Positions 4,621-51,200 of a stretch of 64,000 nucleotides of DNA are shown piece after piece. Made by a program: the position numbers and the translations under genes. Below the pieces are notes generated by a model. The model searched no databases. It saw only the letters and a list, made by a program, of their open reading frames with translations, and had not been told where the DNA came from. Origin of the DNA: Chlorokybus atmophyticus. Lineage: Eukaryota > Plantae > Mesostigma and Chlorokybus algae. The first letter of the stretch is position 1. Each line of letters starts with the position of its first letter. The stretch is from NCBI GenBank assembly GCA_009103225.1, contig RHPI01001056.1:1-64000 (forward strand), given 5' to 3'.

Positions 4621-4861
4621 TGGTTCAGCTATGCCTTTGCGCGCAGCTGAACCTGTTTGTTGGTGATGCGTTTTGCACTACCTGCTGCAGCCCTTCTCAC
4701 CTGCCAACAGAGTGCTTGAGATGAGGCACAGGGACATGCTTGCAATATGAACTACATGGGCGAGGATGAGAAGACCTCTGAGCCCAATAGTAGACAAGCA
4801 TAGCATTAGCCTAGCGCAGTAAACAGCAACTTACTTGTGTAGGCATAGCCTCCTTGCAATG

Positions 4862-5467
4862 TGTCATGCCTATCGCCCAAGCATGCCAGTCGTCATCGGG
4901 CATGCCTACAGCGAGACCCTCGCCCGGCTTACCAGCATGGCGACCCGCGCGCGTCACTGACCAGTAGCTAGGTCATGTCTCTAGAGTAGCTCATGACCAT
5001 AGCCTACACAGGCACCGCGCGTAGCTGTTCAGCTGTGAGTTCAATTATAAGTTGGGTTCTATATCGAGTGGGGATTTCCTGTGGAAATAGCCTCGATATG
5101 ACCGTTAGCTTATGTTCTGGACAGTCATGAGTTGACTTGTATAAGTAGGCACAGTGTTCACCGGATCAGCTGGTGACACTGTAAGTGAGAAAGCTAAGAG
5201 CTTGTGAAGCGACTTGAACTACGAAACACACTATCCCGGTTCCCAAGAATCCCCTCACCGTGTGAGAACCTGTGCATGTTCTTGTGCACTGTGCTTGTCT
5301 TTGCTGTGAGCTTTGTGTACTTGGTCGCGGTGTGCTTGTTGGCATCAGTCAGGGCATAGCATCCACGTGTTGCTTGCTCATTCACCTCACTTAACAGTGT
5401 AATTTCTCTTCCACTCATGCAAAGAACTGTGTAAACAGCACTACCTATAGTAGTGGCTTGTTGACTT
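4862..5467 (+). repeat. Terminal repeat A1 (606 bp)
   Basis: Direct copy of 15144-15749, about 13 substitutions by eye (11 transitions). Confidence 0.95.
5140..5145 (+). promoter_or_regulatory. TATA box of the retrotransposon; predicted TSS ~5172
   Basis: TATAAG about 30 nt upstream of the segment complementary to the PBS. Confidence 0.55.
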
Positions 5468-5478
5468 ACAGTGTCACC
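5468..5478 (+). other. Self-priming primer-binding site (11 nt, ACAGTGTCACC)
   Basis: 5464-5478 is the perfect reverse complement of 5172-5186. The A1/A2 identity ends exactly at 5467. No TGG-starting tRNA PBS is visible. Confidence 0.8.
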
Positions 5479-5677
5479 CTCTTTGCTCAAGTGAGTGTAG
5501 TTGCAGGCATTACATCAGCATCGCAATCTGTAGTTGTACACATCACAGTGCAGTGTTGTCACCGTCATCGCATAGCGCGCACAAGCGCTAGTGTGTTGGG
5601 TGATAGCAGCACTGGAGATCCCATTGTAGAGCACAAACACTCTACCCTTCATCCACTTTCACCATCGCATCAGCTGT

Positions 5678-7813
5678 ATGAGCAGGCCCACCCCTTTCTC
5701 GCCAATAGAAGAAGGGGACCTCAACAGCTGGAGCCCAACCTCCAACCTTACCTACGAGCGCGCAAGTGAAGGGAGCGATTACCGTAGCAGCAGAGGCTCA
5801 CGCCCCGTCTCCGGCTTCACCTCCTCTCACTCCACTCCTCGACAACGAGCATCTCCACCACCGTCGGACAGTGACGACGAAGAGATGGAGCCTTCCAGCT
5901 CAACCAACTCCCTACGCTTCTCCGGACGCCCTGGCACCACCTCACTTGACGAGTTCATCATCAAGTTCCACTCCAAGATGCGGCAGCAAGCCCTCAAGAG
6001 CAAGGACTGGACAGATGAGGTATCGTTTCATGTGTCCGCTCAATACCTTGATCACGAAGCACATGATGTGTGGAAGTCCGTCGCTGAGTTGCACAAGATT
6101 GATGGCTATGGCGAGTTGGCCAGCACAACAGCCGCCACGTCACTGCACAGCCCATCGGTTACTGTTCCTGTAGCAGCGGCCCCGCCCGCCTCAGTCACGG
6201 GTCTCACTCTAGCTGCAGCCATGGAGAAGGCAGAGAATGAAGAAGTTGAGGTGGTAGTGGCCTCATTGACTCCTGCAGAGATCGAAAGCAAGAAGGCCGA
6301 GCGCCGGATCAGGATACTCAACCGCACCGCTGCCATCATCAGGGAGCAACAAGAGGAGCAGCAAGCTGCAGCATTGGAGATGGGTACGCCCCTGCTACCA
6401 ACACCGAACTCGCGTGCTCCAGCGGGAGGCAGTGTTTTCACCCTCGGCTCAGTGGCATTGCGTGCACCCGCGCTCACGGTGGGCGCGGCCATGTCGGACT
6501 CCCCGTTGAAGGACCTCTACGCCGCACTCCGGCGCACCTTCCCACCTCAAACCAACAGCAAGGTGGAGGAGTTGAGGCGTTTTCGACGGAAGCCCAACGA
6601 GGACCCTCTCCGACTGTATTCACGGTTGGAAGGGTTGCTTAAAGACACTGACTACAAGATCGTCAGTGAGGAGGCGGCAGCAGTGGTGTATGTGGCCGAG
6701 TTGGATCCCACCCTGAGTGAGTCAACGCGCCTGACGCTGAACTACAGCAGGCCCCTCGGCTACACCCTCAAGGAAGCTTTCGAGACTGCACAAGCCATCC
6801 ACAAGCGCGCAGTGTATGAGAAAGCGGTGCTGGACACCAACCGCAGTGCCTCGCGGCCTATTGCAGGCACAAGTGCAGAGCCTCTTCGGCGGGACCGCAG
6901 CCGAGAGCCGCAAGGTATCCACAACAAGGATAAACGGTCAGCTCATGCTGCCCTTGTGGCTCCAGTGCTGTGCCACCGGTGTGGTCGACATGGCCACTAC
7001 CAAAAGGAGTGCACCGAAGATTACGGCAACCTTGTGTGCGACCACTGCCACAAGACGGGACACTTGGAGACAGTATGCTGGCTCAAGTTCCCTGAGCTGC
7101 GGCCCTCTATTGGCTACAACAACGGCAACAACGCTGTTGGCTACCGCGGTAACAACAGCAACAACAACAACAACAACAACAACAACAACGGGGGCTACAA
7201 CAACAGCAACCACGCTGGCGGCTACAACAACAGCAACAACGCTGGTGGTCGCAACAATGGCAACAACGCTGGTGGCCACAACCCCAACCTCAACAACAAC
7301 GCTGGGGCCCGCAAGGAAAAAGCTGGCTACAGAGGGAAAAACCTCCCTCCACAGCACAAAGGACCTGAGGGACGTCCTCGCGCTGGAGCTGCTGCTGTAA
7401 AGGCACCAACCAATCCACCAGCTATTGACCAAGTGGCAGCCCTGATGGCGCGCGTGGCACAGCTGGAGGAGAACAAGGAGCGGGACTATCAAGCCTGCTA
7501 TGCTGCTAGGTGGGCACTGATGGCACCAAAACGGGATAGGGACACTCCCACGCCGTCACGCGTACAACCATCAAGACGTGCGCGCAGGGAAGCTGGCGCG
7601 TCGTCAACAGCGGCATCGTCGGACGCCACAAGTGGTGCTGCCTCGGCAGCCACAACCACTGCTGGGATGACGCCGTCGACGACGCCGTCGACGACTCCGT
7701 CGGCGTCCACACCGACCACGACAGCAGGTCAGCACTCTTGGCACCACGCTGTCCCCGGTGATGGAAAGCACCCACGCCGCAACAACCATGGTCGTTGGGT
7801 TCGAGGGTGGTGA
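5678..7813 (+). CDS. gag: Gag with two CCHC zinc knuckles and an Asn-rich (AAC)n tract; frameshifted near 7730 into the pol frame
   Basis: CHRCGRHGHYQKEC and CDHCHKTGHLETVC at 6971-7078; gag-like ELRRFRRKPNEDPLRLYSRL; AAC repeats at ~7115-7295. Confidence 0.9.
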   Translation: MSRPTPFSPIEEGDLNSWSPTSNLTYERASEGSDYRSSRGSRPVSGFTSSHSTPRQRASPPPSDSDDEEMEPSSSTNSLRFSGRPGTTSLDEFIIKFHSKMRQQALKSKDWTDEVSFHVSAQYLDHEAHDVWKSVAELHKIDGYGELASTTAATSLHSPSVTVPVAAAPPASVTGLTLAAAMEKAENEEVEVVVASLTPAEIESKKAERRIRILNRTAAIIREQQEEQQAAALEMGTPLLPTPNSRAPAGGSVFTLGSVALRAPALTVGAAMSDSPLKDLYAALRRTFPPQTNSKVEELRRFRRKPNEDPLRLYSRLEGLLKDTDYKIVSEEAAAVVYVAELDPTLSESTRLTLNYSRPLGYTLKEAFETAQAIHKRAVYEKAVLDTNRSASRPIAGTSAEPLRRDRSREPQGIHNKDKRSAHAALVAPVLCHRCGRHGHYQKECTEDYGNLVCDHCHKTGHLETVCWLKFPELRPSIGYNNGNNAVGYRGNNSNNNNNNNNNNGGYNNSNHAGGYNNSNNAGGRNNGNNAGGHNPNLNNNAGARKEKAGYRGKNLPPQHKGPEGRPRAGAAAVKAPTNPPAIDQVAALMARVAQLEENKERDYQACYAARWALMAPKRDRDTPTPSRVQPSRRARREAGASSTAASSDATSGAASAATTTAGMTPSTTPSTTPSASTPTTTAGQHSWHHAVPGDGKHPRRNNHGRWVRGW

Positions 7814-9819
7814 ATCCACCACTCCTGCCTCCATCGAAGCGACCACATCGGCCGCAACTGCTGCCACCCTCACAGCCGCCACCTCAGTAACGACGGCTGC
7901 TGCCGGTGCCACCACCATCGCCTCCAGTAGTGCTGCCACACCCACTGCACCACTTCTTGAGATTCGAACGGCACCGCCACCAGCACTTGACGTCACACAG
8001 CAAGTGCCACGCGGACCACATGCAGAACGCGCCTGGGCGTCGGTTCTACGCAACGTGGAGCCCACCACCATTGCGTACGAACTAGGGGGGCAACGCACCA
8101 CGCACGTGGCACGCGATGATCGCATCTTGCCCCTACCACCTTCAGAGTACCACACGCTGCCAGAATCCACACAATAGCAGCTGGAGAATGAAATCCTCGC
8201 CGGCACTGCACCAGAGATGAGGGATCGTCTCTTCGGGGTCACCTACCGGCGACCTGCAGTGTTAGCACTGGCCATTCAGTTGTTCTTGGCATTACACGCA
8301 CAATTGCAGGGCGCACCCATTCAAACGCGGCAACCCATGCCCGCTCAGCAGATCGACTTCGAGCCCTCGCCACTGGACCCACTCGGACTCCAGCGCCACA
8401 AAATACAAGACGTCGTGGTCACCATGTCAGACATCGCGCTAGGCGCTGACCCCGCTCTCCGGGGGCTCACTCCAGGCAGTTGTCAAGAGCGTTTCTCTGC
8501 CCTCGAACAGGCACATCGTTATCAGGTGGACCAAGCTGCCCAAGTGGATGCGCGCCGACAGGGGTACGAAGCAGCACACGCCGTTATCGTACCAACCGTA
8601 GCTCCAGCAAATGTTGCCAGCGCCTCCACGGCGCTGACCACAGGGTACTCCACGGCAGTCGCCATCGAACAGCCAAGACAAGCAACTGTTGCAGACCAAG
8701 CGAGGGCGTTGGCGCAACAATTGAGGGGGGTAATCGCCCCGCTGTTGCCTGCTTTGGTCGAAGACATGCCTGAGGATCAACGCGATGCAGGGCGAGGGTA
8801 CCTCACCCCGCAAGGGGACACCACACAACGAGGAGGAGCTGGTATGGTGGGGGAGCAACAACTCCGTACCGCACTCATCCGGCAAGCAGTCATGTTGCAC
8901 AGGCCTGAGGGCAACACATTAAGACAGATGATGGGGATGCAAGAGGGCAGCGCCGCTCGAGCCCGTCTCGTGACATGGCTCGTTGCCAATCACCCTGCTG
9001 TCCCCCTGTTTGCCTTTGGCAACCGAGCATCATGGTTGGGGGCATTCGTTCGTTCGCTGCGACAAGCATATGACGAAGCTGCCACCACAGCCCCGGACAC
9101 GCTGGAGGGAGTGCAAGAGGCAATGCTGCGGCTGCCAGGGGTGGAAGCCGCACGACAACGGCGGCGCATCGCCATTGCTCATGAGCTACACGCACAGCAG
9201 ACCGACCTCCAGCGCACCCTACGCGCGCGCGCCATGACCGTGCTCGATGTGGGAGTGGTACAAGGAAGGTGGGATGCCTACATGGCAGGGATCTTGCGAG
9301 TCCCCACCATCACTCGCGACATGCGGCGACAGCTACTACGCGCCGTATACCTGCAGCCCATGCCTCAATATCATCATTGGACCGACACAGACACCGAGCC
9401 CACGGCCACGTGGGAAGGGACGTTGGTCAGAGAAGCGGCTCATGCTATCCGATGGACGTACGCCACGGAGCAAGCTGAATGCGAGGCAGGCCCACAAACA
9501 CCGGGTCCGCCGGGGTTTCCTCCACAGCCATTGGGTACACCCGCGGGCATGATTCCATCTTCGCAGAGGCGGCATCCACCTGCGCCGCCACCACAACCAG
9601 CGCCGAAACCTCCAGCACCGAGGCCCCACCGTGTCTACCAACCACCACAACAAGGTCGGTTCGGCAGAGGGAGAGGGCAAGGAGGGGGATCTCCGGACCC
9701 AGCAGGCAGAGGAGCTCTGGCTGCAATGCGCTCAGCACCCCCAGCTGAGAGAACTGAGGCAAAGGTGCAGACAGCTCGTATGAAGAGGCTGCGTATCGAC
9801 GCCAATGCTGCCATGGTGG

Positions 9820-10200
9820 TCAACCAAGGCAAGCACGTTACCATTAACGGCCTGGCACCCAAGCGAGTGATGTTGGACACCGGAGCACAGCCTGTCATCA
9901 TCGGGCGCTTCCTCGCGCGTTCCCTCGGCATAACCAGCTCCGACTTGGTGCCTTGCCCGTACATGTTGGACACTGCCACAGGTAGCCGAGATAAGGTGAT
10001 GGGAGTCACCAGGGAGGCCTTTTGCATTCGGTTGACAGGGCTGGACCCAACCCACACAACCGAGATCGTCCAGCAATGTGTGGTTACCAATGCCGGCTCC
10101 TTCGACTTTCTGCTTGAGCAGGACTTCAACTTTCTTGTGGGCATGGGCCTCGACTGCTGAACAGAGCGAGCGTGGTTTCGGCCACATTGGGATGAGGATG
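9820..10200 (+). other. Retropepsin aspartic protease domain
   Basis: VMLDTGA (catalytic D at 9876) and FDFLLEQDF. Confidence 0.85.
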
Positions 10201-10599: not shown

Positions 10600-11570
10600 A
10601 ACAGGGCATCACAGTGTTGGAGCTGTTTGGAGGCATCGGCAGTGGTCTTGCTGCGATCCTCAACACAGGTGTGAAGGTTGTCAAATACTATTACCGCGAC
10701 CCAGACCCACATGCGCAAACGGTCCTCAAGCACCACTTACGCCAACTGCACGAAAGGTATTCACGTCAACTACCCCTCTTGGCGTTGCAAGGCAGCCTCA
10801 AAGCATTGCCACAAGACATGCGGCTGATCACCGAAGATCACCTACTGTCCCTCGGCAACGTCGACCTATTTATAGCTGAGTGGGAATGCTAAGGGCACTC
10901 CAGGGCAGGCAAGGGACAAGGCTTCGAAAACCCTCGCTCCGGGCTGTTTTGGGAGCTGATGAGAATCATCCACCTCCTTCAACACCACCAAATCTCCAGA
11001 CCCCTGGGGTATGTCATCGAAAATGTACATTCAAAGGACGACAAGCGTCCACACGTGGCCTCCAGCTACCGACAAGTTTGCTCCATTCTAGAGCACCCAC
11101 CCAAGGTGAACGCTGCATGACATGGCTCGCGCGCACATCGTGTACGTGCCAAATGGACAAACTTGGCCGCCGTGGAGGAACTCATGGCCGCAGAGTACAC
11201 GCGCAGCGCTCGGCCGTGCAAACTGCTGGTCGATGACATCCTTGACCCCAGCCGCAATGCACAACCTGTCCTGCATCATGACCACCACCACTTCTACCCG
11301 CGCAATCAGCCCGGTCAACCCCGTCGCGCACTCCCCACATTGGTGTCCTACCCGGGCTCCTACGCATTTCGGAACGGTGGTGACGGGATGGTGTTTGATG
11401 CGACCACCAACAAGCTAGAGGAACCCAACGCACGCGAACGTAAACGCGCCATGGGATTCTTCCCCAACAGCATCACGGGTTCATCGCTGACAGATAGTCA
11501 GCAATGCCAGCTGCTTGGCCGCGCCATGGACCAGAACAGCATGGTATGGTTGCTGGAGCTGAGTTTCGCA
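10600..11570 (+). other. C5 cytosine DNA methyltransferase domain within Pol
   Basis: Motif I VLELFGGIGSG (10614-10646); motif IV DLFIAEWEC*GHSRAG (Cys at 10887); motif VI YVIENV (E at 11019); motif VIII HRVRAKWTN; motif IX ERKRAMGF; motif X LLGRAMD. Confidence 0.9.
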
Positions 11571-11789
11571 TTGCAGGACCGCCACGTGTCCTTCGAGGAT
11601 CTGGAACACTTGGCTGGGGGGTGGGCTGATTGCGTAGCCAACAGGCACACCAAGGCAGCTCACACAGCCCTTGAGGTGGTCCACATGGATGAGCAAGCAG
11701 CAGTGACAGTGGAGGACATTCCCGTGGTCGCCAATGCAACCTCCTGGGACCATGCCATTGGCCCGTTGGCCACAGAAGACACTTGAGAG

Positions 11790-13140
11790 AAGCTGGAGGC
11801 TCTCCTCAACAAATGGAGGAGCCAATTCAGCTTCAATGTGAAGGAATTAGGGACGTGCTCAGTGTACCAGATGGACATCGAGCTGGTGGACACTGAGCCG
11901 GTGTTCCGGCGACAATACAGGCTCTCCAAGTTGGAAGAGGACCTGGTGGAACAGAGATGTAAGGCGCTGCTTGATGCAGGCCTTATCGAAGAGTCCACAT
12001 CGGACTTCGCAGCAGCAATCGTCATGCCACTGAAGAAGGATTCAGCAGGCAACTAAACAGAGCGACGCATGTGTGGCGACTATCGCCCCCTCAACAACAA
12101 GACCAAGCAAGACAGGTACCCCATGCCCACAGCAGAGGGTATCTTTGATGATGTGGGAGACTGCACAGTCTTCAGCATCCTGGACATGCGTCAAGGGTAC
12201 AACCAAATCGCCATCAAGGACGAGGACAAGCACAAGACCTCCTTCTGGGGCAACCGACAGTTGTACCAATGGAAGGTAATGCCGTTCGGGCTGAAGAATG
12301 CCCCAGCCAAGTTTCAACGCGTCATGGACAAAGCCTTGAAGGGGCTGGACTGCGCGCGGTGCTACATCGATGACATCCAGCATCTTCAGCACATCGAAGC
12401 AGTGCTGGAACGACTCAAGGGAGTGGGGATGACCGTACACCCCGACAAGTGTACCTTCTTCACCCACAAGGTGCCGTACTTAAGGCACATGATTGTGCCC
12501 CATGGTGTGTATGTGCAGCAGGCAAAAGTAGAGGCTCTGGCAGCTATCCCCGCCCCGACAGACCTCACACGTCTGCGCGCTTTTTTGGGACTTGCCAACT
12601 ACTATCGCCGGTTCGTGAAGGACTTCGCAAAGATCGCAAGGCCCCTCAACGAGCTACTGAAGAAGGAGGTGGAGCTCGCATGGAAGGAGCCGCAACAGCA
12701 GGCCTTCGAGGAGCTGAAGAGCAGGCTCACCACCGCTCCCATCCTTCAACGTCCGGACTACGCCAAGCCTTTCATCCTTCACACCGACTGGAGCAAGCTG
12801 GGGATGGGAGCGGTGCTGGTGCAGCACGATAAGAACAAGAAGGAGCGGGTGGTGTCATACGCCAGCCGAAGAAACAACGGCGCCGAGGCCAACTACAGCA
12901 GCTACGAAGGGGAGTGCCTCGCTGCAGTGTGGGCCATCTCCTTCTTCCGACCTTTCCTCTTTGGTCGGCAGTTCCAACTAATCATCGATCATCAGCCCCT
13001 CAAGTGGCTGATGACCAACCAACATCTGACAGGGAAACTTGCTCGATGGGCCCTGCTGTTGCAGGAATACGACTTTGACATCGACCACCGCGCTGACCTC
13101 ACCATCCAAGACGCCGATGGCCTCAGTCGCAACCCTCACC
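11790..13140 (+). other. Reverse transcriptase and RNase H (Ty3/Gypsy type)
   Basis: RRMCGDYRPLN, LDMRQGYNQI, VMPFGLKNAPAKFQR, CYIDD; RNase H FILHTDWS...YSSYEGECLA...IIDHQPL. Confidence 0.97.
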
Positions 13141-13559
13141 TCAGCACCAACGACGCAACTGGAGCTCGGCATGAGCTCGTCCCTGCAGCAACAGCCCCCA
13201 CCATGGCAGCCATGTTTGCTGCTGCCGCGTTGCGCTCATGGCGCAAGATCAACACCACGGCCTCAGTAGTGGCAGAGGAAATTCTTGCCCTTGAGCCTAC
13301 CGGCCCTGCGGCAACCACACCCTTGGGAGACGCCCACGCAACCGACATTGACGTCGATAACACAGAGCTGGCGCCCACTGACACAAGGCAGGACATATGG
13401 CAGGACAAGCCATTACTTTCCTTTCTTCAAAGTGGCCAGCTTCCCTCCGGCATGAGCGCTCGAGAGAAGGACCGAGTCAACCAACGCACCCGTCACTATC
13501 GATGGGCAGGCGACAAGCTGTATCGCCGCTTCCACGACGAAGACAAGAAAGTGCCGACA

Positions 13560-14680
13560 CCGGTCACGCGCGAGGGCATCATCACTTCCCTCCACACTGA
13601 GCTTGGACACTTCGGTGTCAAGCGTACAGTCAGCCTAGTGAGGGCACGATATTGGTGGTATGGGTTAACAAAACAGGTGCAGGGGTTCGTCAGCCACTGC
13701 CAGCAGTGTGACATGGTGCGTGCCAGCCTCAACACGCGTAGCGCCACCTTGCACCCACTCCCCATCTCCGGTCTCTTTTATCGATGGGGACTCGACATAT
13801 TGAGGGACTTGGCACCCTCAGCGCGTGGCAACCGTTACATCCTGATCATGATTGAGCACTTCTCCAAATGGGTGGAGCTGGTACCATTACCCGACAAGAG
13901 CAGCAGGGGGGTGTCTCAAGCCTTCCTCTCTCACCTTCTCAGCCGATTTGGCAGCTGCACCGAGGTCATCACTGACCAAGGTACTGAGTTAAGAGGGGAA
14001 TTCGACACCCTCTTGGACAAATGTTACATCGACCACCGCCGTACCTCGCGTGATCACCCTCAAGACGACGGCCTCGCCGAGCGTACAGTACAGACCATCA
14101 AGAAGGCACTCCGCAAGTACGTGCTGGAGTACGAGAAGAACACTTGGAATGATCACCTCCCGTGGGTGGCCCTCGGATATCGATTGTTAAAGCAGCGGCT
14201 CTGCGGGAGTACAGCCCGTACTACCTGCTGTTCGGGCGACCACCATTGCTCCCCTTCCGTGCGCAGCAGGAGGTGGATCGCGTCGTGAACAACCTCGACG
14301 ACCCTGACTGGATGCACCACGACATCACCACGCGCGCCGCGCTTTTCGAGCGCACCATCCCCATGGCCTTCAACAACCTGCGCATTGCGCAGCATTGCGA
14401 CACGCTGCGCTACGAGCGCGTATGCAGCGGCTTCTACAAGGAGCGCCAACGGCGGTTCCAAGCGGGGGACTTTGCCTATCGCATGGCAGCCACCAAAGAC
14501 ACGCTTGACACCTCCGTAGGCCGCACCGTCTACAAGGTACTCAAAGTGTACCCCACAGGGGTGCTGGACCTCCTTGGTCAAAACGGAGAGAGGTTGAAGG
14601 ACAACATGGTGAACTGTGCGCCATGTCACCTTCCTTACGTAACCGGCTTCGGGCGTATCCAGCACCCTCGTCCCGCGCGC
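13560..14680 (+). other. DDE integrase with HHCC zinc-binding domain
   Basis: HTELGH...CQQC; D at 13794, D at 13974, E at 14079 (34 residues between the last two by my count); SPYYLLFGR after the frameshift. Confidence 0.95.
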
Positions 14681-14689
14681 AGCACACGC

Positions 14690-14824
14690 TGTGAACGCTG
14701 CGGCAGCGCCGGCGACGACGCACTTATGATGCTGTGCGATGGCTGCAACAAGGGCCTGCATTGCTACTGCCTGGAGCCACCTCTGGACGCGATACATATG
14801 GAGGAGTATTGGTGCGACGATTAC
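14690..14824 (+). other. PHD finger at the integrase C-terminus (last Cys mutated to Tyr)
   Basis: CERC-x8-MLCDGCNKGLHCYCLEPPL-x8-WCDDY, a C4HC3 pattern. Confidence 0.85.
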
Positions 14825-14891
14825 CGTACCAACGGCCCTCCTCACTTGCGCTAGCAATTGAGCTCTGGAGCTGGAACCTCCCCCCGAGCCC

Positions 14892-14899
14892 AGGGGGGG
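14892..14899 (+). other. Polypurine tract AGGGGGGG
   Basis: Lies immediately after the pol stop region and abuts repeat B1. Confidence 0.75.
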
Positions 14900-15141
14900 T
14901 GGCTTGTTGACTTTGTGTGCTACAGCACAGCATGTACACTAGGGAGAACACCGACTCCACCTGCCCGTACTACCCAGCAGCAGCAGACCAGCTGCACAAA
15001 GCACTTGTCACCATGAGGGTTTGGGTCATCTTTTGCTTTTGCTGCACGTTGCACAGGTGGCGCAGCAGCATGTCCACCACAGCATGGCTGTCCATGCAGC
15101 TGTCTGAGACAGCGTGACCCTCGACTCCCCTCGACCCGACA
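14899..15141 (+). repeat. Terminal repeat B1 (243 bp)
   Basis: Direct copy of 15735-15977, about 6 substitutions by eye; ends in GACA. Confidence 0.95.
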
Positions 15142-15143
15142 GC

Positions 15144-15749
15144 TGTCATGCCTATCGCCCAAGCATGCCAGTCGTCATCGGGCATGCCTACAGCGAGACC
15201 CTCGCCCGGCTTACCAGCATGGCGACCCGCGCGCGTCACTGACCAGTAGCTAGGTCATGTCTCTAAAGTAGCTCATGACCATAGCCTACACAGGCACCGC
15301 GTGTAGCTATTCAGTCGTGAGTTCAGTTATAAGTTGGGTTCTATATCGAGTGGGGATTTCCTGTGGAAATAGCCTCGATATGACCGTTAGCTTATGTTCT
15401 GGACAGTCATGAGTTGACTTGTATAAGTAGGCACAGTGTTCACCGGATCAGCTGGTGACACTGTAAGTGAGAAAGCTAAGAGCTTGTGAAGCGACTTGAA
15501 CTACGAAACACACCGTTCCGGTTCCCAAGAATCCCCTCACCGTGTGAGAGCCTGTGCATGTTCTTGTGCACTGTGCTTGTCTTTGCTGTGAGCTTTGTGT
15601 ACTTGGTCGCGGTGTGCTTGTTGGCATCAGGCAGGGCATAGCATCCACGTGTTGCTTGCTCATTCACCTCACTTAACAATGTAATTGCTCTTCCACTCAT
15701 GCAAAGAACTGTGTAAACAGCACTACCTATAGTAGTGGCTTGTTGACTT
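15144..15749 (+). repeat. Terminal repeat A2 (606 bp)
   Basis: Copy of 4862-5467; separated from B1 by GC. Confidence 0.95.
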
Positions 15750-15977
15750 TGTGTGCTACAGCACAGCATGTACACTAGGGAGAACACCGACTCCACCTGC
15801 CCGTACTACCCAGCAGCAGCAGACCAGCTGCACAAAGCACTTGTCACCATGAGGGTTGGGGTCATCTTTTGCTTTTGCTGCACGTTGCACAGGTAGCGCA
15901 GCAGCATGTCCAGCACAGCATGGCTGTCCATGCAGATGTCCGAGACAGCGTAACCCTCGACTCCCCTCGACCCGACA
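15735..15977 (+). repeat. Terminal repeat B2 (243 bp), overlapping A2 by 15 bp
   Basis: Copy of 14899-15141; followed by TSD AATG. Confidence 0.95.
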
Positions 15978-16712
15978 AATGCAACTCCCTCCCACCAAGT
16001 TCGTGTGCTCACACAGCAACTTGCATGCCAGCAATGTCCCCAGCTACTTGCATCCACTCAAAGTAGCAGCTACCACTCAGCACAACACTAACATTTAGTC
16101 AAACCAACAACTCATACGCGCTACGACAAGCACCAAACACCCCCATATATGATAGTTTGCACAATACAATTGGTTGCGTTAAGGGTGGCATACCAACTTT
16201 TTGTTTCCTATCTAAATAGGCTGCAACTCTGTGCTAAGTTGTAATTCCTATTACATATATTATGCAACAAACTCTGCATTAATAGCTACCCCCAATCAAG
16301 GGTTATAGCTATTGCAAATTTTAAAAATGTTACGACAACACGCGATAGGCTTGCCATACCAACTTGCTCAAATCTTAATCAATTAGACTAAAACTCTATG
16401 GAATATTGCTTTATTTAATAACTTGAGCGTTGCAACAATCGCACCCCAAAATGCTTTGCCATTCAAAAGTTATGCTAGTTACAAGCTTTTAGCTCGCATT
16501 TTTCCTAAACTATATATATTCAAAATTTATATCTCCCGCTATACTGCTTCAAACGCAATGCCGTTTGAATTGGACGGTCATCATAAAACGAGCTTAACAG
16601 TCCACAAGAGTCCATCACCATCCAAATAAAACAGCGCAGACAACGCTCACAAAACCGCCATTGCCGAAATAAGGGCAGGCGACCCCAGGTCCTAGCGACT
16701 TTGCTAGCAAAA

Positions 16713-17785: not shown

Positions 17786-18293
17786 TGTAACAAACCACTA
17801 GGCCACAAAAGCATGAAGTGTGTTTTTGCGGCCGTTGTGGCGTTATTATTCAGTCGTCCGTGACATTCCCCCCCACTTAGGTGTCTAATGTCTTTATTAG
17901 ATGAGTTTTTTACAGGGCATCTCGTCACTGAGCAGTGGAAGAACGATGCAATCATCACTTGCAATCATCACTGAGCAATCGCAGCGCGCATTGCGCGTAT
18001 GGGACCGACTGTCAGTCGCCGTCAGGCAAAGGCGCGTGGTATCAAGCGCGACGCGTTGGAATGACCGACTGCCGTTCGGCAAGTCGCACGTTACTGCTAT
18101 AACCAGGCGCGCGCGACCCCTTTGATCGAACAACAACTGCAAAAATTCGTCTTGTTCTGCCGCCAAGCGGTTTCGAACTCAGGACCTTTTGGGTCTCAAG
18201 CTCCAATGACCAATGTAACAAACCACTAGGCCACAAAAGCACGAAATGTGTTTTTGCGGCCATTGTGGCGTTATTATTTGGTTGTCCGTGACA
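17786..18293 (-). mobile_element. TRIM (miniature non-autonomous LTR retrotransposon), 508 bp
   Basis: 80-bp LTRs at 17786-17865 and 18214-18293 (TGT...ACA, 6 differences, all transitions); 5-bp TSD CTTGT; minus-strand PBS-like TGGTCATTGGAGC; PPT GGGGGGGAA next to the 3' LTR. Confidence 0.9.
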
Positions 18294-21682: not shown

Positions 21683-21744
21683 ACTGTAAAAATGCACCGA
21701 ATGCTACGTCTGCATCACTGAATGTATCAGTCAATAGCATGGAC

Positions 21745-22390
21745 TGTAAATGCAGGTTGGACAGATTGTGTGTGTTGTAAGGATAGTTGCAGAAGCAACA
21801 AACAATTCTGTGCTGATGGATAATCATAATATTTGGCGTTTACTGAATATTCTCTATGCGGATGGTTACTCATACATTTCTCCACAGATTGTTCATGTTG
21901 TTTGCATGCTGAGGTTTACCCGGTCATGATAGCAGTAAGATAATAAACAACCTGTCGAGAAATAGACGAGTAACAAATCGCGTGTGTTGCAAGGGTAGCT
22001 GCAGTAGCAGTAGCAGTAGTTGCAGCAGTAGTTGCAGCAGCAACAAGCAAACCTGTTCTGATGGATAATCAAAGTACTTGGCGTTTGCTGAATACTCTCT
22101 ATGCAGGTGGTTACTCGTCTATTGTTGCACAGATTGTTCATGTTGTTTGCATGCTTAGGTTTACCCGGTTATGATAGCAGTAAGGTAATGAACAACCTCT
22201 GGAGAAATAGACGAGTGACCACCTGCATAGAGAGTATTCAGCAAACGCCAAATACTTTGATTATCCATCAGAACAGGTTTGCTTGTTGCTGCAGCAACTG
22301 CTACCGCTACTACTACTGCAATTACTGCTACTGCTACTACTGCTACTGCAACTACCCTTGCAACACACGCAATTTGTCCAACCTGCACTT
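21745..22390. repeat. Direct duplication plus long inverted repeat (foldback/MITE-like)
   Basis: ~230-bp unit duplicated in tandem; 21973-22123 is inverted at 22206-22377. Confidence 0.85.
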
Positions 22391-23652
22391 GTAGTCCATG
22401 ATGCTGATATTGGCAGTCAGAAGCTAGGTATATGGCGACAAGCACAAACCTGCTTATATATACAACAACGTTCCAAGAATTCGGTGCATGCTACATGTAA
22501 ACAGTATCACGTAATGCTGGTGACCGTCGTGCAAAGTGCACTAGCACTGCTTATTCAGGTTGGAACGTGTTGCTTGGTCACGACCATGCGCGGCTTCCTC
22601 CACACGGGTACACTCGTATGTAATAATAGTTGCTTTATAATGGTTAGTATACTTGTTCATGTAAATATCGTGAAACATAACGCATCGTATACTCCACACA
22701 TTGTGGTATGCAATGATTGCTGGTTATGTGTCGCTTATGTATCGCACACACACATTGCGTGTGGGCATGCAAACATGGACATACTGCACATTTTCCCTCT
22801 TGTCAAATTGAATGCTTACATAATAGTGACGATAGTATATTTGTTAATTGCAATATGTTAAGTCATATGTGATTTCGTTGTTGAGTACGCAAACCGCAAT
22901 TTTTTGCTCGATGGAGTGTAACACTGATATTGCAATGTAACATACATGTAAAGATGGATTCTTTTTGTAGATATTATAAAAGGCATAAAGATTCGATTTT
23001 TGTAGGAATAGCAACCACGTGCGTGAATGACAGTGCCACCCGGTTTGGCTTGAAGCATGTATACTTCATGCGCAACCCGTATTATTGAAATAGATTGTAT
23101 ACAAATTTGAACGTTACACACAACAGTCACTTGAATTACAGTGTGATAGTTATAACATATACCAGATTCATCTGCTATGATTATACATGCGATTGAAGCT
23201 CATAAACAGAAACGGAGCACAATAAAGCACTTAACATGTAGGTAGGCGTGAGCAACCAATGTCTGTGCCTTAGCGTACAACACTATGCATTATGCACATG
23301 TAACTAGCCATTTTGTTTAAGGTTGATTGTTTACATGAGCGCTACGAGACACTGATAGCATGTTTCCGCATGATATCCATCAAATTGTAGATTATAAACA
23401 CGCGCATATGTATGTGTTACATCAGAATCGTGCATGATGGAGGTATACACGAATACAAGAATAGCCAATCATGAAACCATCTGATGATCGTTTACATTAT
23501 ACACGCATGGATGACGAGGCGTCGTGTCAACATGCGTGACGAGGTACTGCGTACAACTTATATGTCATGATAAGCACGACACCTGCACTTCAAGACTCTT
23601 GACGCAAGAGAAGGTTGCTCGAGTACATGTATTGACAGCCTGGTGACATGCC

Positions 23653-33119: not shown

Positions 33120-35079
33120 ATGGCGGATGGAGGTACAGCCCTGTATTTGAGCTTCACATCCAATATTCGGTCAATACTGTTCATGATTCTGGATAGGCTG
33201 CTTACTCGGCGTTGACTTGCTGCATGCATGCTAGCATTCAAGCGGTTGATTCGTGCCAGTTGCTCGCGCATGAACGGGCTGGCATCCTCAAACGAAAACA
33301 CATATTGTAGGTTGATGCCAGTGTTCTAGGCGTTATGCAAAAACAGTGGCATCGTGAGTTTTTATTTTGCGTCCTGTCTAGTGGGACTAAATGTAATTTA
33401 GTTTTTCTGTCATTATCACAGCAGCGCCGCCGCCGGTGAGGTCATTCGCTGCTGCCGCCGCCCATGCCGATGACAATTCCCCGTTGAAAGTGGTGCAGAT
33501 TGATGGACTGGTACGCATGCCATTCGCACTTGCATGGCTACTATTGGAGCTGTTGTTGCAAGAGAGAATTGCCATAGTAACAGCTGCATGTGAGCATTTG
33601 GTGTCAAGTGTACGCGTGGTTATGGCTTCAGTTCCCGTATGCAAGTCTCTGTGTGCTTGCAGGTTTTGTTGAAGATTGTGAAGCATTGCAAGCAGCAGAT
33701 GCCCAGTTTAGTCACAGGGCAGCTTCTCGGTCTCGACATTGGCTCAACACTGGAAGTCACCAACTGCTTCCCATTCCCAGTAAGGCCTTCCAGTCTTCCA
33801 TCGTTTCTTGCTGCTTTTCGTCCATCCAGCGCTCTCGCCTTTTTCATGCTAGTACTAGTGCAAACATGCCTGGCAATGTGCAGAGCCGCAGCGTGGAAGA
33901 AGAGGATGAAGCCGAGGCGGAGGGCGCGAACTATCAGCTGGAGATGATGAGGTGTCTGCGTGAAGTTAATGTTGACAACAACACCGTTGGATGGTACGTC
34001 ATTCGCTTGCATGTCAAGAAGGTTCAAGTTATTGACAGTTGGTTGAGCTCACAGCACCACTACACACTTAGATACACGTGCACACGCACATGCGTGCACA
34101 TGCACATGCACGCACGTATGATACCTCCACACACCACAGCTACCCAGTGCTGGCACTCGAGCTCACATGCATTGGGCTATATATGTTGCGCAGGTACCAG
34201 TCAACATATATGGGTTCGTTTCAGACAGTCGAGTTGATCGAGACCTTCTTGAACTACCAGGAGAACATCAAGCGCTGCGTGTGCATCATCTATGACCCCC
34301 TGCGTTCGCAACAGGGCGTGCTTGCGCTGAAGGCCCTGCGACTAACCGACAACTTTATGGAGGTGTACCGCAGCGGCAACTTCACTACCGACAAGCTTAA
34401 GACGGCGGGCGTGTCGTGGCGAGACATCTTTGAGGAGATCCCCATCTCGCTGCACAATGCCTCGCTCGTGGGCGCGCTCATGGCAGAGCTCGAGCCAGAC
34501 ACGCTCGCCACGCAGTGCGATTATGATCGGTTAACGCTGTCGACAAACCCGTTTTTGGAGAAGAACTTTGAGTTCCTCATCGAGTGCATGGACGACCTCA
34601 GCATGGAGCAGCAAAAGATGGCGTACTTTCAGAGAAGCGTTGGAAGGCAACAGAGCCAACAGCAGGTATCATTTGGGGATGCATTGTTCTGTGCAGCGTG
34701 ATCAAGTTGTTGCAATGACAATGTAACCTATGGGTTACTACTATCTCAGGCCTGGCTGCAAAAACGCAAAGCTGAGAACATTCAGAGGAAAGCCACAGGC
34801 GAGGAGCCGCTTCCCGAAGAGGATCCCAACAACCCCATATTCAAGGCCATTCCAGAGCCGAGCAGGCTTGACGGCTTTTTGATCACCAACCAGATCTCCA
34901 ACTACTGCTCGCAAATCAACCAGTAAGTTCCCTTGACTTTGTGTTGTGATGTGTATTCTTCATATTGACGTATTGATGCTCCAAAAGGCAAGGCTCTGAC
35001 GCTTGTGTTGTGTAGGTTTGCTGGGCAGAGTCTTGGGAAGTTGTACTTGATGGAGTCTGTGCGAGATCATGGACACTGA
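33120..35079 (+). CDS. eIF3h: Eukaryotic translation initiation factor 3 subunit H
   Basis: [10 protein letters not shown]|[33 protein letters not shown]|..[24 protein letters not shown]|[54 protein letters not shown]. The first-exon ATG is tentative. Confidence 0.97.
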
Positions 35080-45263: not shown

Positions 45264-48200
45264 ATGTCCCCCTGCAAAGCACTGCGCCTGCAATGGCCAC
45301 TGCTGTCCTTGCTTCTGACCCTGCTGCTGGCGTCTTCTGCCAAAGCCGCTGTTGTAAGGTAAGTTCTGCAATATGCTTTCTAGGCCAAGCACATGCTGTG
45401 CCCAGTCTATGGCTAGAAGCATAACAAGTCACGGGGACACTTTAGCAATGTAAAAGTTTGTGCGCTGCACAGTAACTACTGACATGGCCAACCTTGCAAC
45501 TGCACCGCAGGCAACCGGGATTCAATCTGATCACCGTGTTCAGCAACTTGGAGTTTCCCACATGCGTCCGCTTTTCTACCGATGGGAGAGTGTTTGTGGC
45601 TGAGAAGAATGGTATGTAATGGCAATCCTCAGCCCAGGCTCAGTCACCTGCCTGACGGTTCAATCCATGTTGTTGGTGCTGAGTGCTGACTTCATCAACT
45701 GGTGCAGGTAAAATCAAGGTCTTTTCAAGCGTCGCAGACCCAGGGCCTCCCACTGTCGTTGCTGACTTATCCTTGGTAAGTATTTGCAATCACAGTGTGT
45801 TGACAGTGTGGCCTGCAATACGTGTGAGGTGCTTCCACGTGCTTTGGCTCGGTGTCATCTTTTGCGATGATAGCATTCCCTCGTTGCTGCAGGTGGTGGA
45901 TACACCAGGAGATCGCGGCTTAAACTCCATTGCCATAAAGCCTTCGCCAACGCCAGAGGGCTACATACAGGTCACAGCAGTCCCTGATGGTTATCCCTCC
46001 ACGAGAGTGACTAGTCAAGTCCTGCCTAGCATGGAGCTGACGCTGCTGTGTGTGCAGTTGTATGCCAACTTCGCTGTGCGTAGCGGCGTGGATGTATGCG
46101 ACACTGAGCCGTGTGTTGCAAACAATCGCCTCTCAAGATGGACGTTGACTGCTGATAACCAGCCTGCGCCGGGAACTACTGAGGAAATCCTTCTTGATGG
46201 CTACTGGTGCCAGGTGCGTGCCCTCTGAGTAAGCACACAGCAATGGTTGACGGTCAGCACTTCACAACTAAAATTCTGTCTATGCAGGAATACCTGTCTC
46301 ACAGTGCTGGCGATCTCCTCTTTGATTCTGATGAGAACCTCTACATCACTGGAGGAGAGGGGTCTTCCTACTGGGCCGTTGACTTTGGTACGCACGCTTT
46401 ACAGGCACACAAGCTGAGCCTCTGGCCTACAGCCCAACGACACAGCGTTTTTATTGTATGTCTGCCACTTGCACTGAGGGTCCGTTAACTGGATTTGTGT
46501 TGTAGGAAACTTTGGCAACCTCTGTGGAAGTGGCAGTTCAACTTCACCCGGAACGCCTGGCACAAACCTGGATCCGCCAGATGCTGAGGGCGGGGCGCTT
46601 CGATCGCAACACTACAGGTTCGTGGTCTGATGCTTCAACCTCAGGCTGATCTTGTGTCTCATGCAAGCACTGCGGCAGAAACCGTGTGCACTACAACCTG
46701 TGAGCACTTACACTGTGATGTATCTTGCAGAAGCAGTCGGACTCCTTGGCAAGCTGCATACCATGGAACGCTGCTGAGGTTGAATGCCCTTGACGGCAGT
46801 GCGCTGCCGGACACAGCCGGTTTAATGCCAGTGATACTTCGGGCAAGAACCGCATAGTGGTGCGTTCATTGCTGAGTTTCGGTGCGCTTCCTTTGTCTTA
46901 CCTTCGTGCCCTATGCGTTCAACTGGTTCTGTTTCCTTGGGTGCCTGGCAAGTTGTCCTGACCTTCATGTGGCGTGCAGGCTCATGGCCTTCGAAACCCG
47001 TTTCGGTAAGGAGCTGAGAATCATGGCAACGCGTCACTGGTCGACACCCATGCATCAGTCATGTTTCATTACTGCATGCAGTAATGAAAATTGCAATGGT
47101 CAGGGGCTGTCTTCGACCGGGCACCAACGAAATCTGGTTTGGCGATGTTGGCTGGCGTGATTATGAGATGATAAAAATCGTAAAGACTCCAACCGCTGGT
47201 CCAGTGGTGAATTTCGGGTGGCCTTGTTACGAGGTAATGTCCAGCACTGGTGCCCCAGCTTTTCAGAGACGGGCTGCAATCAAGCTGTGACGGCTGATCA
47301 CCTTAACTTTGCAGGGCCCATATCAGCAGCCAGGCTACCAGTCTGTGAGCCCTCCTTTGTCTTTATGCACATCGTTAAGCTCAGCAAGTGTCACTCTACC
47401 GTTCTATAGGTAAGGCTTGGGGTAGCAGTGAATGTATATCTGCACCTCTGCATGGGTAAAGCAAGTAAGATGCACATTAACTGCCGGTCTCTTATCTGGT
47501 TTGTCTGGTTTCTTGTCGACCTTGCATGTCACTGCTTACTTTGACTGCATTGTAGCTGGAATCATGCGGCGCCCCCAAATCAAGATGGCAAGTGCTCAGC
47601 AGCAACCGGAGACACCGGCTCGGCTATTACGTCAGTGCAGTTTTACGCTGGCACATACTTTCCCGAACAATACCGGGGTGCTTTATTCTTTGCAGACTAT
47701 GCTGTAGGGTGCGTTTGGGCAATGCTGAAGGACGCAAGCGGCCAGTTGGATCCCACCAACATTGTAACGGTGATTGATCAGATCTCAAGTGTTGACATAC
47801 AGTCTGCACCTGCAGCGCTAGGAAGTGGCTTGTACACGGTGAGTTTTACACCGGCCTTCGTGATTAAAGTAATTATGTAATCACATGTTTTGTAACATAT
47901 GCTATGACATACAGGTGAATTTTTATGCTGGCCAAATTTATCGCATTAGCTATGGGGACGAACCAGTTCTGTATGCCGTGTTCACAACGAATCAAGTGTC
48001 TGGTGTGAAGCCCCTGCAACTAACATTCGATGCGTCACAAAGCACTGGCGCTCCACCCATCACTGCCTACCAATGGGACTTTGATGGAGACGGTAAGCTG
48101 TGATGTTTGTTTGTTTGTTACAGCGAACATGAACTTTTACGCTTTATGATGTGGCAGGTGTTGTAGACTCCACAGAGCCAGCGCCCTCTTACATCTACAC

Positions 48201-51200
48201 GTCTGGCGGTACATATACAGCTCGTCTTACCGTCTACAGCAGCAGCGGATCTGCTACTACCACAAAGAGCATCTCTGTTTTGGACTCTGACGCTGACCTT
48301 CCTTCTGCCGTCATCACCTCCCCATCTGATGGGGATTCATTCACAGTCAATCAGGTCTTTGTCATCACAGGACAAGTGGGACCTGCAGGCGCCGTTGCTT
48401 CATGGCGCATTATTCAATTTCATTGCTCTAGTACTCAGGTGCTTTGCACTGTTGCAACTTTTTTACGCTGGCAGGCCTACTTTGTCGTAGATTTTGTGAA
48501 AGTGGTCACCCTGCTCGGCAAGAACAGCCCTGGGTGCCAAACATGCCTCTGGTTGCAGGTGGACATCAGCTGCCATACCCATCTTTTCCAACTTGCGGGC
48601 AACACACAGCGCCTGCGGTTGGTTGCTCCGGATCATGAATACTACAACTACCTTCAGATCATCCTATACAGCACGGTGCCGTCCGGCGCAGTCGCTAGCA
48701 CCCAGGTAACTTGCCCATGCATCTTGATATCCAATATGCACGCGCATTAGGCGATAGGCACACAACTGCCTGTGATGCTGCACATACGCGCCTTTGCACA
48801 CACGCCCACACGCACACCCACAGTTTTGCGCTCGTGCGGGTATGCTCGCTGACAATGCCCACGCCCACACATGCCTGCATACATGACACCTATGTGCACA
48901 CCAACATGCCTGCATATGCTCAATGACACTCGCGCATCCCAAACCCACAACCCCCCGCCTCCCCATGCATTGCACCTTCCTCCTCGCCCGCAACAGAAAA
49001 CCAATCCCTCACATGCACCAGGTCAATCTCTACCCCGTCCAAGTGGACCTGACTTTTCAGACCGTGCCTCCCGGTCTGACTATAGCTGCTTCTGGTGGTG
49101 GAAGTCGCACCACTCCCTTTAGCATCGTTGGCATCGCAGGGTCCTCTGTTACTGAAGCTGCACAGAGCCCGCAGTCTCTCAATGGTGATAGCTATGAGTT
49201 TGTCAGCTGGCAGGTATGCAACCTTGGAAGAAGATGCAGTCTGCTGTCAGCTCTCTGTTTTGCTGACATTGACGCATATGCTGCCCTAGTTTGCTCCACT
49301 CCCTGCTTGCTTTACCAGATTCACTTGCATACTTGTTCAGGATGGAAATACTGCCGCTACGCGAGTGATAGTCCTTCCCAACACCGCAGTTACATACACG
49401 GCAGAGTTTCAGCGGCTCGGTGATGCACCACCTGCGCCTGCACCTGCATCACCCCCGCCACCACAGGCCCCGACAGCACCTGCTGATTTACCTGACCCCG
49501 TTGAACCGCCAGGTAACACCTGGGTGCCATATGCCTCCTTGCTGTAAGTTGTAGTACGCCTGCCTATGGTTGGCAATTGCATCTTTGGGTCTTCACGTCC
49601 ACCTGTGCACAGACAGCACTGGATTAACTTCTAACACATTCTGTATGGCAGCCGCCAATCTCGTTGCAAGATTTCTGCTGACAGATACCGATTCCGGCAC
49701 GTCTGTACCTGACACAAGCGGCAACAACCGTGACGGGGTTCTTGCTGGGACATCAAGTGGTGTAAAAACTGGCAGAGGTATGTGCCTGGAGTACATGACT
49801 CGTGTTGGGAGCCGGTCATGCCATTGTTCTCCCAGGAAGTCAACAAGCATTACATTGCTATCAGCTCTTGTAACGTGACTTGTTTGCAGGTTATCAATAT
49901 GATGGTAAAACCAACTACGTCTATCTCGGCAATGCGCCCCTGACACCGTTAGCATGGACTGGCAGCATCACGATCTCAGCCTGGCTGAGGGTTGAGCCAC
50001 TGAATGCTGATGATGTATCTGGTGTGACAACGGTCCGCTACGATGCCGTCGCAGCAAATGCCAAGAGCATACTTCTCGGAGTGCAAGGAAACCCCGCATC
50101 CAACGATTACATGTATGTCTTCGGCACTGACTCGCAAGCCGCAAACCCCATTCACACAATCACTGCCGCTGTAGGCATCCACGACTTTGACTCGTTTGTT
50201 CATCTGGTGGGCACCTATGACGGTTCTGCGTGGAACCTCTACAGGTATGTAAGATAGAAATCATGGGTTATCAAGCTTGTACGGCAGTACACATTCGCAG
50301 AAGCCCCAGCTTGTCCAATGTAGTTTCTGTGATTACTGCCTTTCTTTCCCATGTGACAAACTAACAAGCTGCTTCTGTTAGGAATGGCCTCCTTTCTCAA
50401 TCTGCGCCAGACCCTGCAGGACCTCTCAGCTACTCCGGTTGGTGGAGTCTTGGTGGATCTGGTTTCCGAGACCTGGTGTCCCAAGATCTGTTCTCAGGCC
50501 GCATGCAGGACGTGCAATTGTATAACATAGCATTGGATGCAAGTGAAGTATCCTACCTATACCAGGTACCTAAAGATGGATGACGTGTTGTGCAAAGGCA
50601 CTGGTACTGTGCCTCACGTGACCTCATGAACTGCGTCGATGGATGGTTGGCTACGCTTACATTAATGGCGGTTGTTGGCAGAATCTTGCGGGAACAATCG
50701 ATGCGCCTCCAACTTCTTCTCCGCCACCACCAGTACCTGCAGCTCCAAGTAAGCTTTCTCACCCACGTGTCATGCAGTATCTTTATACCATATGCATGAT
50801 CTGCGCATCTCTTGCATGGTCCATGTACTTCAGACAGTATGATGCGCTGACTCAAGTGTGTTGCAGGTGTCGACCCAGTCGTATACTACCTGCTGACTGA
50901 AACAGATGGTTCATCCGTTGTGCCGGATAGCAGTCCTTATGGCAACGATGGCTTAATCAATGGTGACGTCTCCAACACGCAAGTGAGTGGCAGCAATTGT
51001 GTGCCACTGGGGCTAGCTCACAGACTCACTACTCTGTGTTGAGCAAGATGTGTCATGCTATTGTTTGAGAGTCAGTTGTTGAGTACTCTTGCAGGCGCCC
51101 ATCAAGACCAGCTCGGGGCTGTACTTTAATGGAGGAGGTACATATATATATTTCGGCCAACCTCCTACACTGCAATGGACCGGGTCAATCACAATGACCG

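Follow-up and report, generated by a model that had tools for sequence, protein, structure and literature searches.

The accepted substrate for integration in LTR retrotransposons and retroviruses is linear cDNA, and two-LTR circles are mostly deemed dead ends. A circular intermediate has been proposed for DIRS-type elements, which have no DDE integrase and usually no target-site duplication (TSD), and the self-primer of the Tf1 and Tj1 elements is 11 nt long. Cleavage of such junctions by integrase has nevertheless been documented, both in vitro and in drug-block studies. In vitro, foamy-virus integrase cleaves the LTR-LTR palindrome after CA on both strands and leaves 2-nt 5' overhangs (PMC1180852), and HIV-1 integrase tetramers cleave the palindrome at the junction of their two-LTR circle (PMC1905944).

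Among green algae, the legend to Fig. 4c of de Mendoza et al. (2018; PMC5890265) describes KnitGypsy-Dnmt3 of Klebsormidium nitens as having a DIRS-like repeat arrangement together with gypsy domains; according to the same text, the Klebsormidium methyltransferase showed no activity in yeast, a result that its authors judged inconclusive. In Chlamydomonas reinhardtii, the LTRs of Gypsy-7a_cRei, an element active in the laboratory, are unequal, the left one being without the final 8 bp of the right one (Craig et al., PMC9940879), and 86 new laboratory insertions are reported within one long-read assembly (PMC9940879), few of which the preprint calls unusual in length. The main text of PMC9940879 does not mention a palindrome, and the missing 8 bp are the sole remark there. 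The layout discussed below has been in print since 2018, with KnitGypsy-Dnmt3, and the mechanism that we propose for it is apparently new to the literature: full-text searches found it for no gypsy element, and the REM1 paper, the Repbase reports, one thesis and the figures of the key papers, which lay outside their scope, may describe it.

The element in the Chlorokybus window

The window, a 64,000-nt stretch of Chlorokybus atmophyticus DNA (contig RHPI01001056.1, positions 1 to 64,000), contains a decayed Ty3/gypsy element that spans 11,116 bp and is laid out as A-internal-B-GC-A-B (Table 1). Its two A repeats are 97.9% identical and its two B repeats 97.5%, and solely GC (15142-15143) stands between B1 and A2, where GACAGCTGTC has its one occurrence in the window. 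With 0.10 occurrences of this 10-mer expected by chance, the word alone is not rare, and it is its position that matters. The original prediction, that a palindromic B1/A2 junction matches both ends of the element, was confirmed by the repeat coordinates, the GC spacer, the outer ends TGTC (4862-4865) and GACA (15974-15977), and the AATG duplication on both sides. Because A and B are direct repeats, the match of the outer ends to the junction halves is obligatory and thus uninformative; what carries information is that the junction is symmetric (CA-NN-TG) about a spacer of 2 nt, that the target is duplicated precisely where the element ends, and that those ends differ from the ones set by the polypurine tract (PPT) and the primer-binding site (PBS).

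Table 1. Features of the element and their positions in the window
Feature	Position	Strand	Remark
Left target-site duplication, AATG	4858..4861	.	
Repeat A1, 606 bp	4862..5467	+	starts TGTC, the integrated left end
TATA-like box TATAAG in A1	5140..5145	+	putative promoter; 32 nt before the self-primer, as in L025
Predicted RNA 5' end/self-primer	5172..5186	+	15 nt complementary to 5464-5478
Predicted 11-nt self-priming PBS	5468..5478	+	directly 3' of A1
gag-like frame with zinc knuckle	5630..7813	+	PF00098, E=0.0017, below cut-off
pol frame piece with aspartic protease	8178..10160	+	PF13650
C5 cytosine methyltransferase remnant	10602..11585	+	interrupted by stops
RT, RNase H and integrase (H2C2 finger, D-D-34-E core)	12057..14288	+	damaged pol frame
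Frame with PHD finger	14153..14854	+	PF00628
Polypurine tract AGGGGGGG	14892..14899	+	directly 5' of B1
Repeat B1, 243 bp	14899..15141	+	ends GACA; starts with the 15 nt that terminate A
Palindrome GACA-GC-TGTC	15138..15147	.	putative integrase attachment site
Repeat A2	15144..15749	+	
A2/B2 join	15735..15749	+	single copy of the 15-nt sequence common to the end of A and the start of B
Repeat B2	15735..15977	+	ends GACA, the integrated right end
Right target-site duplication, AATG	15978..15981	.	

Contigs of the element's own family (Logan, runs X1 and X2), which are too short for distinguishing isoforms, break at the same place. At least eight of them turn foreign at 15141-15144, in 5 of the 12 loose-end rows listed; one contig comes in from foreign DNA at 15143, and two pieces among those listed start at 15144. 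Among the few loose ends listed, left and right TSDs did not pair up. One contig spans the palindrome without any difference, and the variant listing for these runs has no variant letter within 15138-15147.

The window element and its relatives have the TG..CA ends with TSDs of 4-6 bp by which Ty3/gypsy elements are recognized, and the window element does not have the two equal LTRs bounded by PPT and PBS that likewise define them; its integrated ends lie 243 bp off the PPT boundary and 606 bp off the PBS boundary. By analogy with Tf1 and Ty3, the PPT and the PBS-like stretch are predicted to be the priming sites. The complement of 5172-5186 consists of the last 4 nt of A and the 11 nt after A1, 15 nt in total; none of 1000 shuffles exceeded 11 nt, and the stem of self-primer and PBS is present in both the MFE and the centroid fold. 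One relative (L025) has the same geometry with a different sequence, its 15-nt complement lying 32 nt after the TATA, and among 12 other old copies a complement of 8-11 nt is found in eight and none in four. Since the PPT adjoins B and the PBS adjoins A, the copied LTR would be B-GC-A, and A2/B2 would be the join of its right and left ends. In the window, the ends of B-GC-A are not TG..CA, and the join holds the 15 nt common to both ends once.

A Pfam domain search of the internal part returned the gypsy order protease-RT-RNase H-integrase, interrupted by stops. Matches to the H2C2 and rve domains identify the integrase as one of the DDE type, and no tyrosine recombinase was matched in 28 frames of the window or 19 frames of relatives. 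As in the KnitGypsy-Dnmt3-like clade, a C5 methyltransferase is present inside the gypsy pol; its place varies among families, for it follows RNase H and precedes the integrase in L037, L039, L062 and L077 and comes before RT in the window element and L007.

Elsewhere in the window, a small TRIM-like LTR element (17786-18293) has 80-bp TG..CA repeats that are 93% alike, a 5-bp target duplication (CTTGT), and PPT- and PBS-like stretches beside its repeats on the - strand, and so provides an ordinary-ended contrast. Clusters of inverted and direct repeats at 21731-22407 and 1944-2402 are MITE-like or satellite-like, and the intervals 34072-34698 and 48133-48747 belong to host exons, which encode an eIF3h C-terminal domain and a weakly matching PKD domain.

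Junctions in relatives and in the Chlamydomonas library

One metagenome scan yielded 79 loci with relatives of the element, and none were found in the viral contigs searched. In a quick integrase tree with 10 outgroup rows, 38 of 48 rows form a single clade (SH-aLRT 99), which contains the window element, its relatives and a methyltransferase-bearing pol from Klebsormidium (P0119) that is presumably KnitGypsy-Dnmt3. Full-coverage protein relatives with the same domains include Klebsormidium and Closterium proteins, and Pleodorina and Haematococcus proteins are also among the matches listed. The spacing from the second D to the E is 34 residues in 35 of 35 scorable clade integrases and 35 residues in 56 of 56 scorable integrases of other gypsy elements, with 28 of the 119 proteins not scorable; in the window (13380-14288) and in related integrases, the 34-residue spacing marks the palindrome clade (35/35 versus 0/56 others).

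Right ends were counted in an AT-rich family (~50% integrase identity) and two sister-family loci, after leaving out L072 (junction deleted), L054 (left end truncated) and the duplicates L002/L011 and L004, which gave 17 distinct B-NN-A junctions and 20 distinct B-flank ends. The spacer is 2 nt in all 17 (GC in 4, AC in 7, GT in 4, AA in 1 and GA in 1); the 13 with centre AC, GT, AA or GA are old copies, and 11 of these (AC, GT) fit C-to-T decay at CAG/CTG. Ten relatives have both ends, and their TSD is an exact 4-bp match in six (two of them TTTT), matches at three of four positions in two and is absent in two. The original prediction had looked to conservation of the palindrome across copies and to TSDs at such ends elsewhere, and both were borne out, the former by the constant spacer and by recurrence across families. 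No copy with both ends visible ends at the positions defined by PPT and PBS, again as predicted. One right side, that of L050, does stop there: at position 2833, foreign DNA takes over from B-GT-A precisely where the PBS sets the end of A, and B2 is missing. This may be a linear end that was captured, or the result of a later insertion.

In the 3' non-coding stretches of distant families, the motif G[AT]CAGCTG[AT]C, chosen after inspection, occurs in 7 of 16 where 0.083 are expected. The integrases of these seven are 37-45% identical to that of the window element, and at least one of the misses, L061, stops short of the place where its near-identical relative has the motif. At L069:11809-11826 and L037:10186-10199 the palindrome grows to 18 and 14 perfect bases. 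Another locus (L073:1-10123) has RT, RNase H and the palindrome GTCAGCTGAC with no integrase match in the two frames scanned, and is possibly trans-mobilized.

The boundaries that priming would set keep their register, that between PPT and B in 20 of 20 tabulated copies and that between A1 and the PBS-like stretch in 9 of 9, and none of these ends has TG..CA. The A2/B2 join deviates in 7 of 15 copies (+1, +1, +5, +6, -1, -2 and one changed base), whereas spacing is constant at the remaining junctions; the visible A1 of L025 and of L049 does not have the change found at A2/B2, and the deviations of +5 and +6 nt may be inherited features of A. Variants are often common to both B copies of an element, for example in L017 (a deletion of ~41 bp), L032 and L008, which argues that both come from one template. 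A distance test of the same point is noisy, as the mate is the nearest neighbour of at least one of the two B copies in just 5 of 14 elements. In three copies (L010, L022 and L034), B1 is short of B2 by one 15-bp repeat unit, a difference not expected from co-templating. In the B1 of these three, and in L057, B stops one 15-bp unit early, and the upstream unit, which also ends GACA, may be a second cut site.

The curated C. reinhardtii repeat library extends the signature to short B repeats. In 16 gypsy entries the internal part ends CA+GC and the LTR then starts TG (Gypsy-2a, 2b, 3, 6, 7a-c, 8a-b, 9a-d, 10a-b and 11), and three begin GC+TG in reverse (Gypsy-5a, 21 and 24), giving 19 in total among entries whose relevant end was examined; seven have an ordinary purine tract beside the LTR (1, 4, 12, 15, 16, N1a and N1b). 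The internal part of Gypsy-7a ends with a purine tract, the 8 bases named in PMC9940879 and GC, which explains why those 8 bp are missing from its left LTR, and the left LTR of the other families with this signature probably lacks B as well. The Gypsy-7a junction reads GACA-GC-TGTG, so that the full 10-bp palindrome is not required, and its integrase has the D-34-E spacing, as counted by eye. The length of B therefore varies from about 6 to 243 bp with CA-GC-TG constant, and some families have tRNA-type PBSs.

A possible route to integration and its alternatives

The feature is real and sets these elements apart as a variant of the gypsy group in which the attachment site has moved. The palindrome is very probably the attachment site of the integrase, whether the ends of the cDNA are joined or a linear dimer is trimmed. 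As to the route, we think it probable that the ends of the reverse-transcribed copy are joined head to tail, and that the DDE integrase then acts on the palindrome nearest the join. The linear product, B-GC-A/internal/B-GC-A, would arise from reverse transcription primed by the element itself or by a tRNA. Ligation, or a jump of the reverse transcriptase from one end to the other, would then connect its right end with its left, giving a covalent two-LTR circle or a loop closed on one strand. At the palindrome closest to this join, the integrase would cut each strand after CA, and A-internal-B-GC-A-B would be inserted with a 4-bp duplication, the second palindrome being retained for the next round and the A/B join presumably being made anew in each cycle. 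In all families measured A is longer than B, which puts the left palindrome closer to the join each time; where B is long, our guess is that integrase loaded at the cDNA ends would cut the join-proximal palindrome, and with a B of 8 bp the footprint of the integrase would reach across the join, a circumstance that may suffice to account for the one-sided cut. That the integrase cuts internally is suggested by the sequences.

The original prediction, that the integrase opens a circular cDNA at a site inside the LTR, holds insofar as the palindrome marks the integration ends, but not in its symmetric form. Covalent one- and two-LTR circles opened at any palindrome would give A-internal-B, A-internal-B-A-B and A-B-A-internal-B, and this geometry agrees with the foamy-virus junction cleavage described in PMC1180852. 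The predicted isoform A-internal-B does occur with an exact TSD, in L028, L046 and L066, but recombination between B1 and B2 yields the same product, so that its presence is no test of the model. Another predicted isoform, A-B-A-internal-B, failed to appear: it was seen at 0 of 12 left ends, no B lying upstream of any of the 12 A1 starts (one with just 158 bases of flank), as against six complete A-internal-B-A-B copies (P = 0.016 at 1:1). A two-LTR circle opened randomly at either palindrome does not fit this absence, and the cut must be asymmetric; we regard symmetric opening as improbable. The sole candidate for the missing isoform, L073, was rejected, its two tandem B-palindrome-A units being identical over their first ~570 bases, which probably reflects a collapsed assembly.

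The main alternative, though an unlikely one, is a route without any circle, in which the reverse transcriptase, on reaching the right end of one cDNA, switches to the left end of another (a head-to-tail dimer), or reads through at length, and integrase trims the linear product at two palindromes. The extra A or C and the 2-nt microhomology found at A2/B2 resemble template jumps, intermolecular copying could produce the three copies with a short B1 and a long B2, and cutting at two different palindromes would produce A-internal-B as well as A-internal-B-A-B, whose right ends occur in near-equal numbers (20 and 17 distinct). Against such a dimer, the two B copies of an element usually have variants in common, and the small number of unusually long or short insertions that the preprint reports among the 86 of Gypsy-7a implies that the short form is not a main primary product there. 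The repeat layout is identical to that of split-repeat elements, which would be expected if a tyrosine recombinase supplied in trans integrated a circle at the B/A junction, as in DIRS, PAT and Ngaro; the 4-bp TSDs, the TG..CA ends, the DDE integrase retained in the long frames of relatives, and the lack of a recombinase domain in the 28 window and 19 relatives' frames make this very improbable. Least credible is that a single rearrangement, or an error of assembly, altered an ordinary LTR element: the copy in the window is indeed decayed, and joining any two TG..CA ends gives a palindrome, yet the layout with its TSDs repeats in many independent insertions and hosts and in a curated library, which already refutes it.

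We therefore prefer head-to-tail joining of the cDNA ends followed by a cut at the join-nearest palindrome. Whether this extends to a whole green-lineage gypsy clade, from streptophytes to Chlamydomonas, we can suggest only tentatively: its members would have the att site inside the LTR, end-joined (circular) cDNA would be obligatory, and the D-34-E integrase would be a site-specific palindrome nuclease acting on the join-adjacent copy, perhaps aided by the methyltransferase in some families. Given the co-occurrence of the two, the methyltransferase perhaps marks, and so protects, the other copy of the palindrome.

Significance and comparison with known systems

If the ends are indeed joined before integration, the genome retains a record of the end-join step in every full copy of the element. 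Should end-joined cDNA prove obligatory throughout the clade, the circle-as-precursor model, abandoned for retroviruses, would have a natural and mainstream example. Because Gypsy-7a_cRei, with its 86 new laboratory insertions, carries the signature, the question is directly testable. LTR finders that demand two equal TG..CA LTRs, such as the one described in PMC6317226, would miss members with a long B, and the clade is thus probably under-annotated in algae and non-seed plants.

The window element shares with KnitGypsy-Dnmt3 both a gypsy pol with a C5 methyltransferase and the DIRS-like repeats; the text consulted in PMC5890265 gives no palindrome, TSD, priming site or mechanism. With Gypsy-7a_cRei and other C. 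reinhardtii gypsy elements it shares the order PPT-B-CA+GC before a TG-LTR, a left LTR without B (stated for 7a) and the PHD finger (PMC9940879), as well as the D-34-E spacing. According to the same source, Gypsy-7a differs in its B of 8 bp instead of 243, in a PBS that begins TGG and resembles a tRNA site, and in a PHD finger that precedes the integrase, and the legend names no methyltransferase. The split direct repeats A-coding-B-A-B are also those of DIRS, PAT, Ngaro and TOC1, as described in the SymbioDIRS legend. These elements use a tyrosine recombinase, in contrast to the DDE integrase, TG..CA ends and 4-bp TSD of the window element. The predicted PBS of the window element would resemble that of Tf1 and Tj1 in being complementary to the 5' end of the RNA, itself predicted, and in lying directly 3' of the LTR, but Tf1 and Tj1 integrate with ordinary LTR ends, as far as PMC4600332 and PMC6317226 describe them. 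Finally, the likeness to foamy virus and HIV-1 would lie in the cut itself, since in the published assays cleavage after CA on both strands of a palindrome leaves ends that resemble 3'-processed ones. There, however, the palindrome is the join of ends made by reverse transcription and the provirus has ordinary LTRs, whereas in the window element the palindrome lies inside the predicted LTR and the join of the reverse-transcribed ends would be carried into the chromosome.
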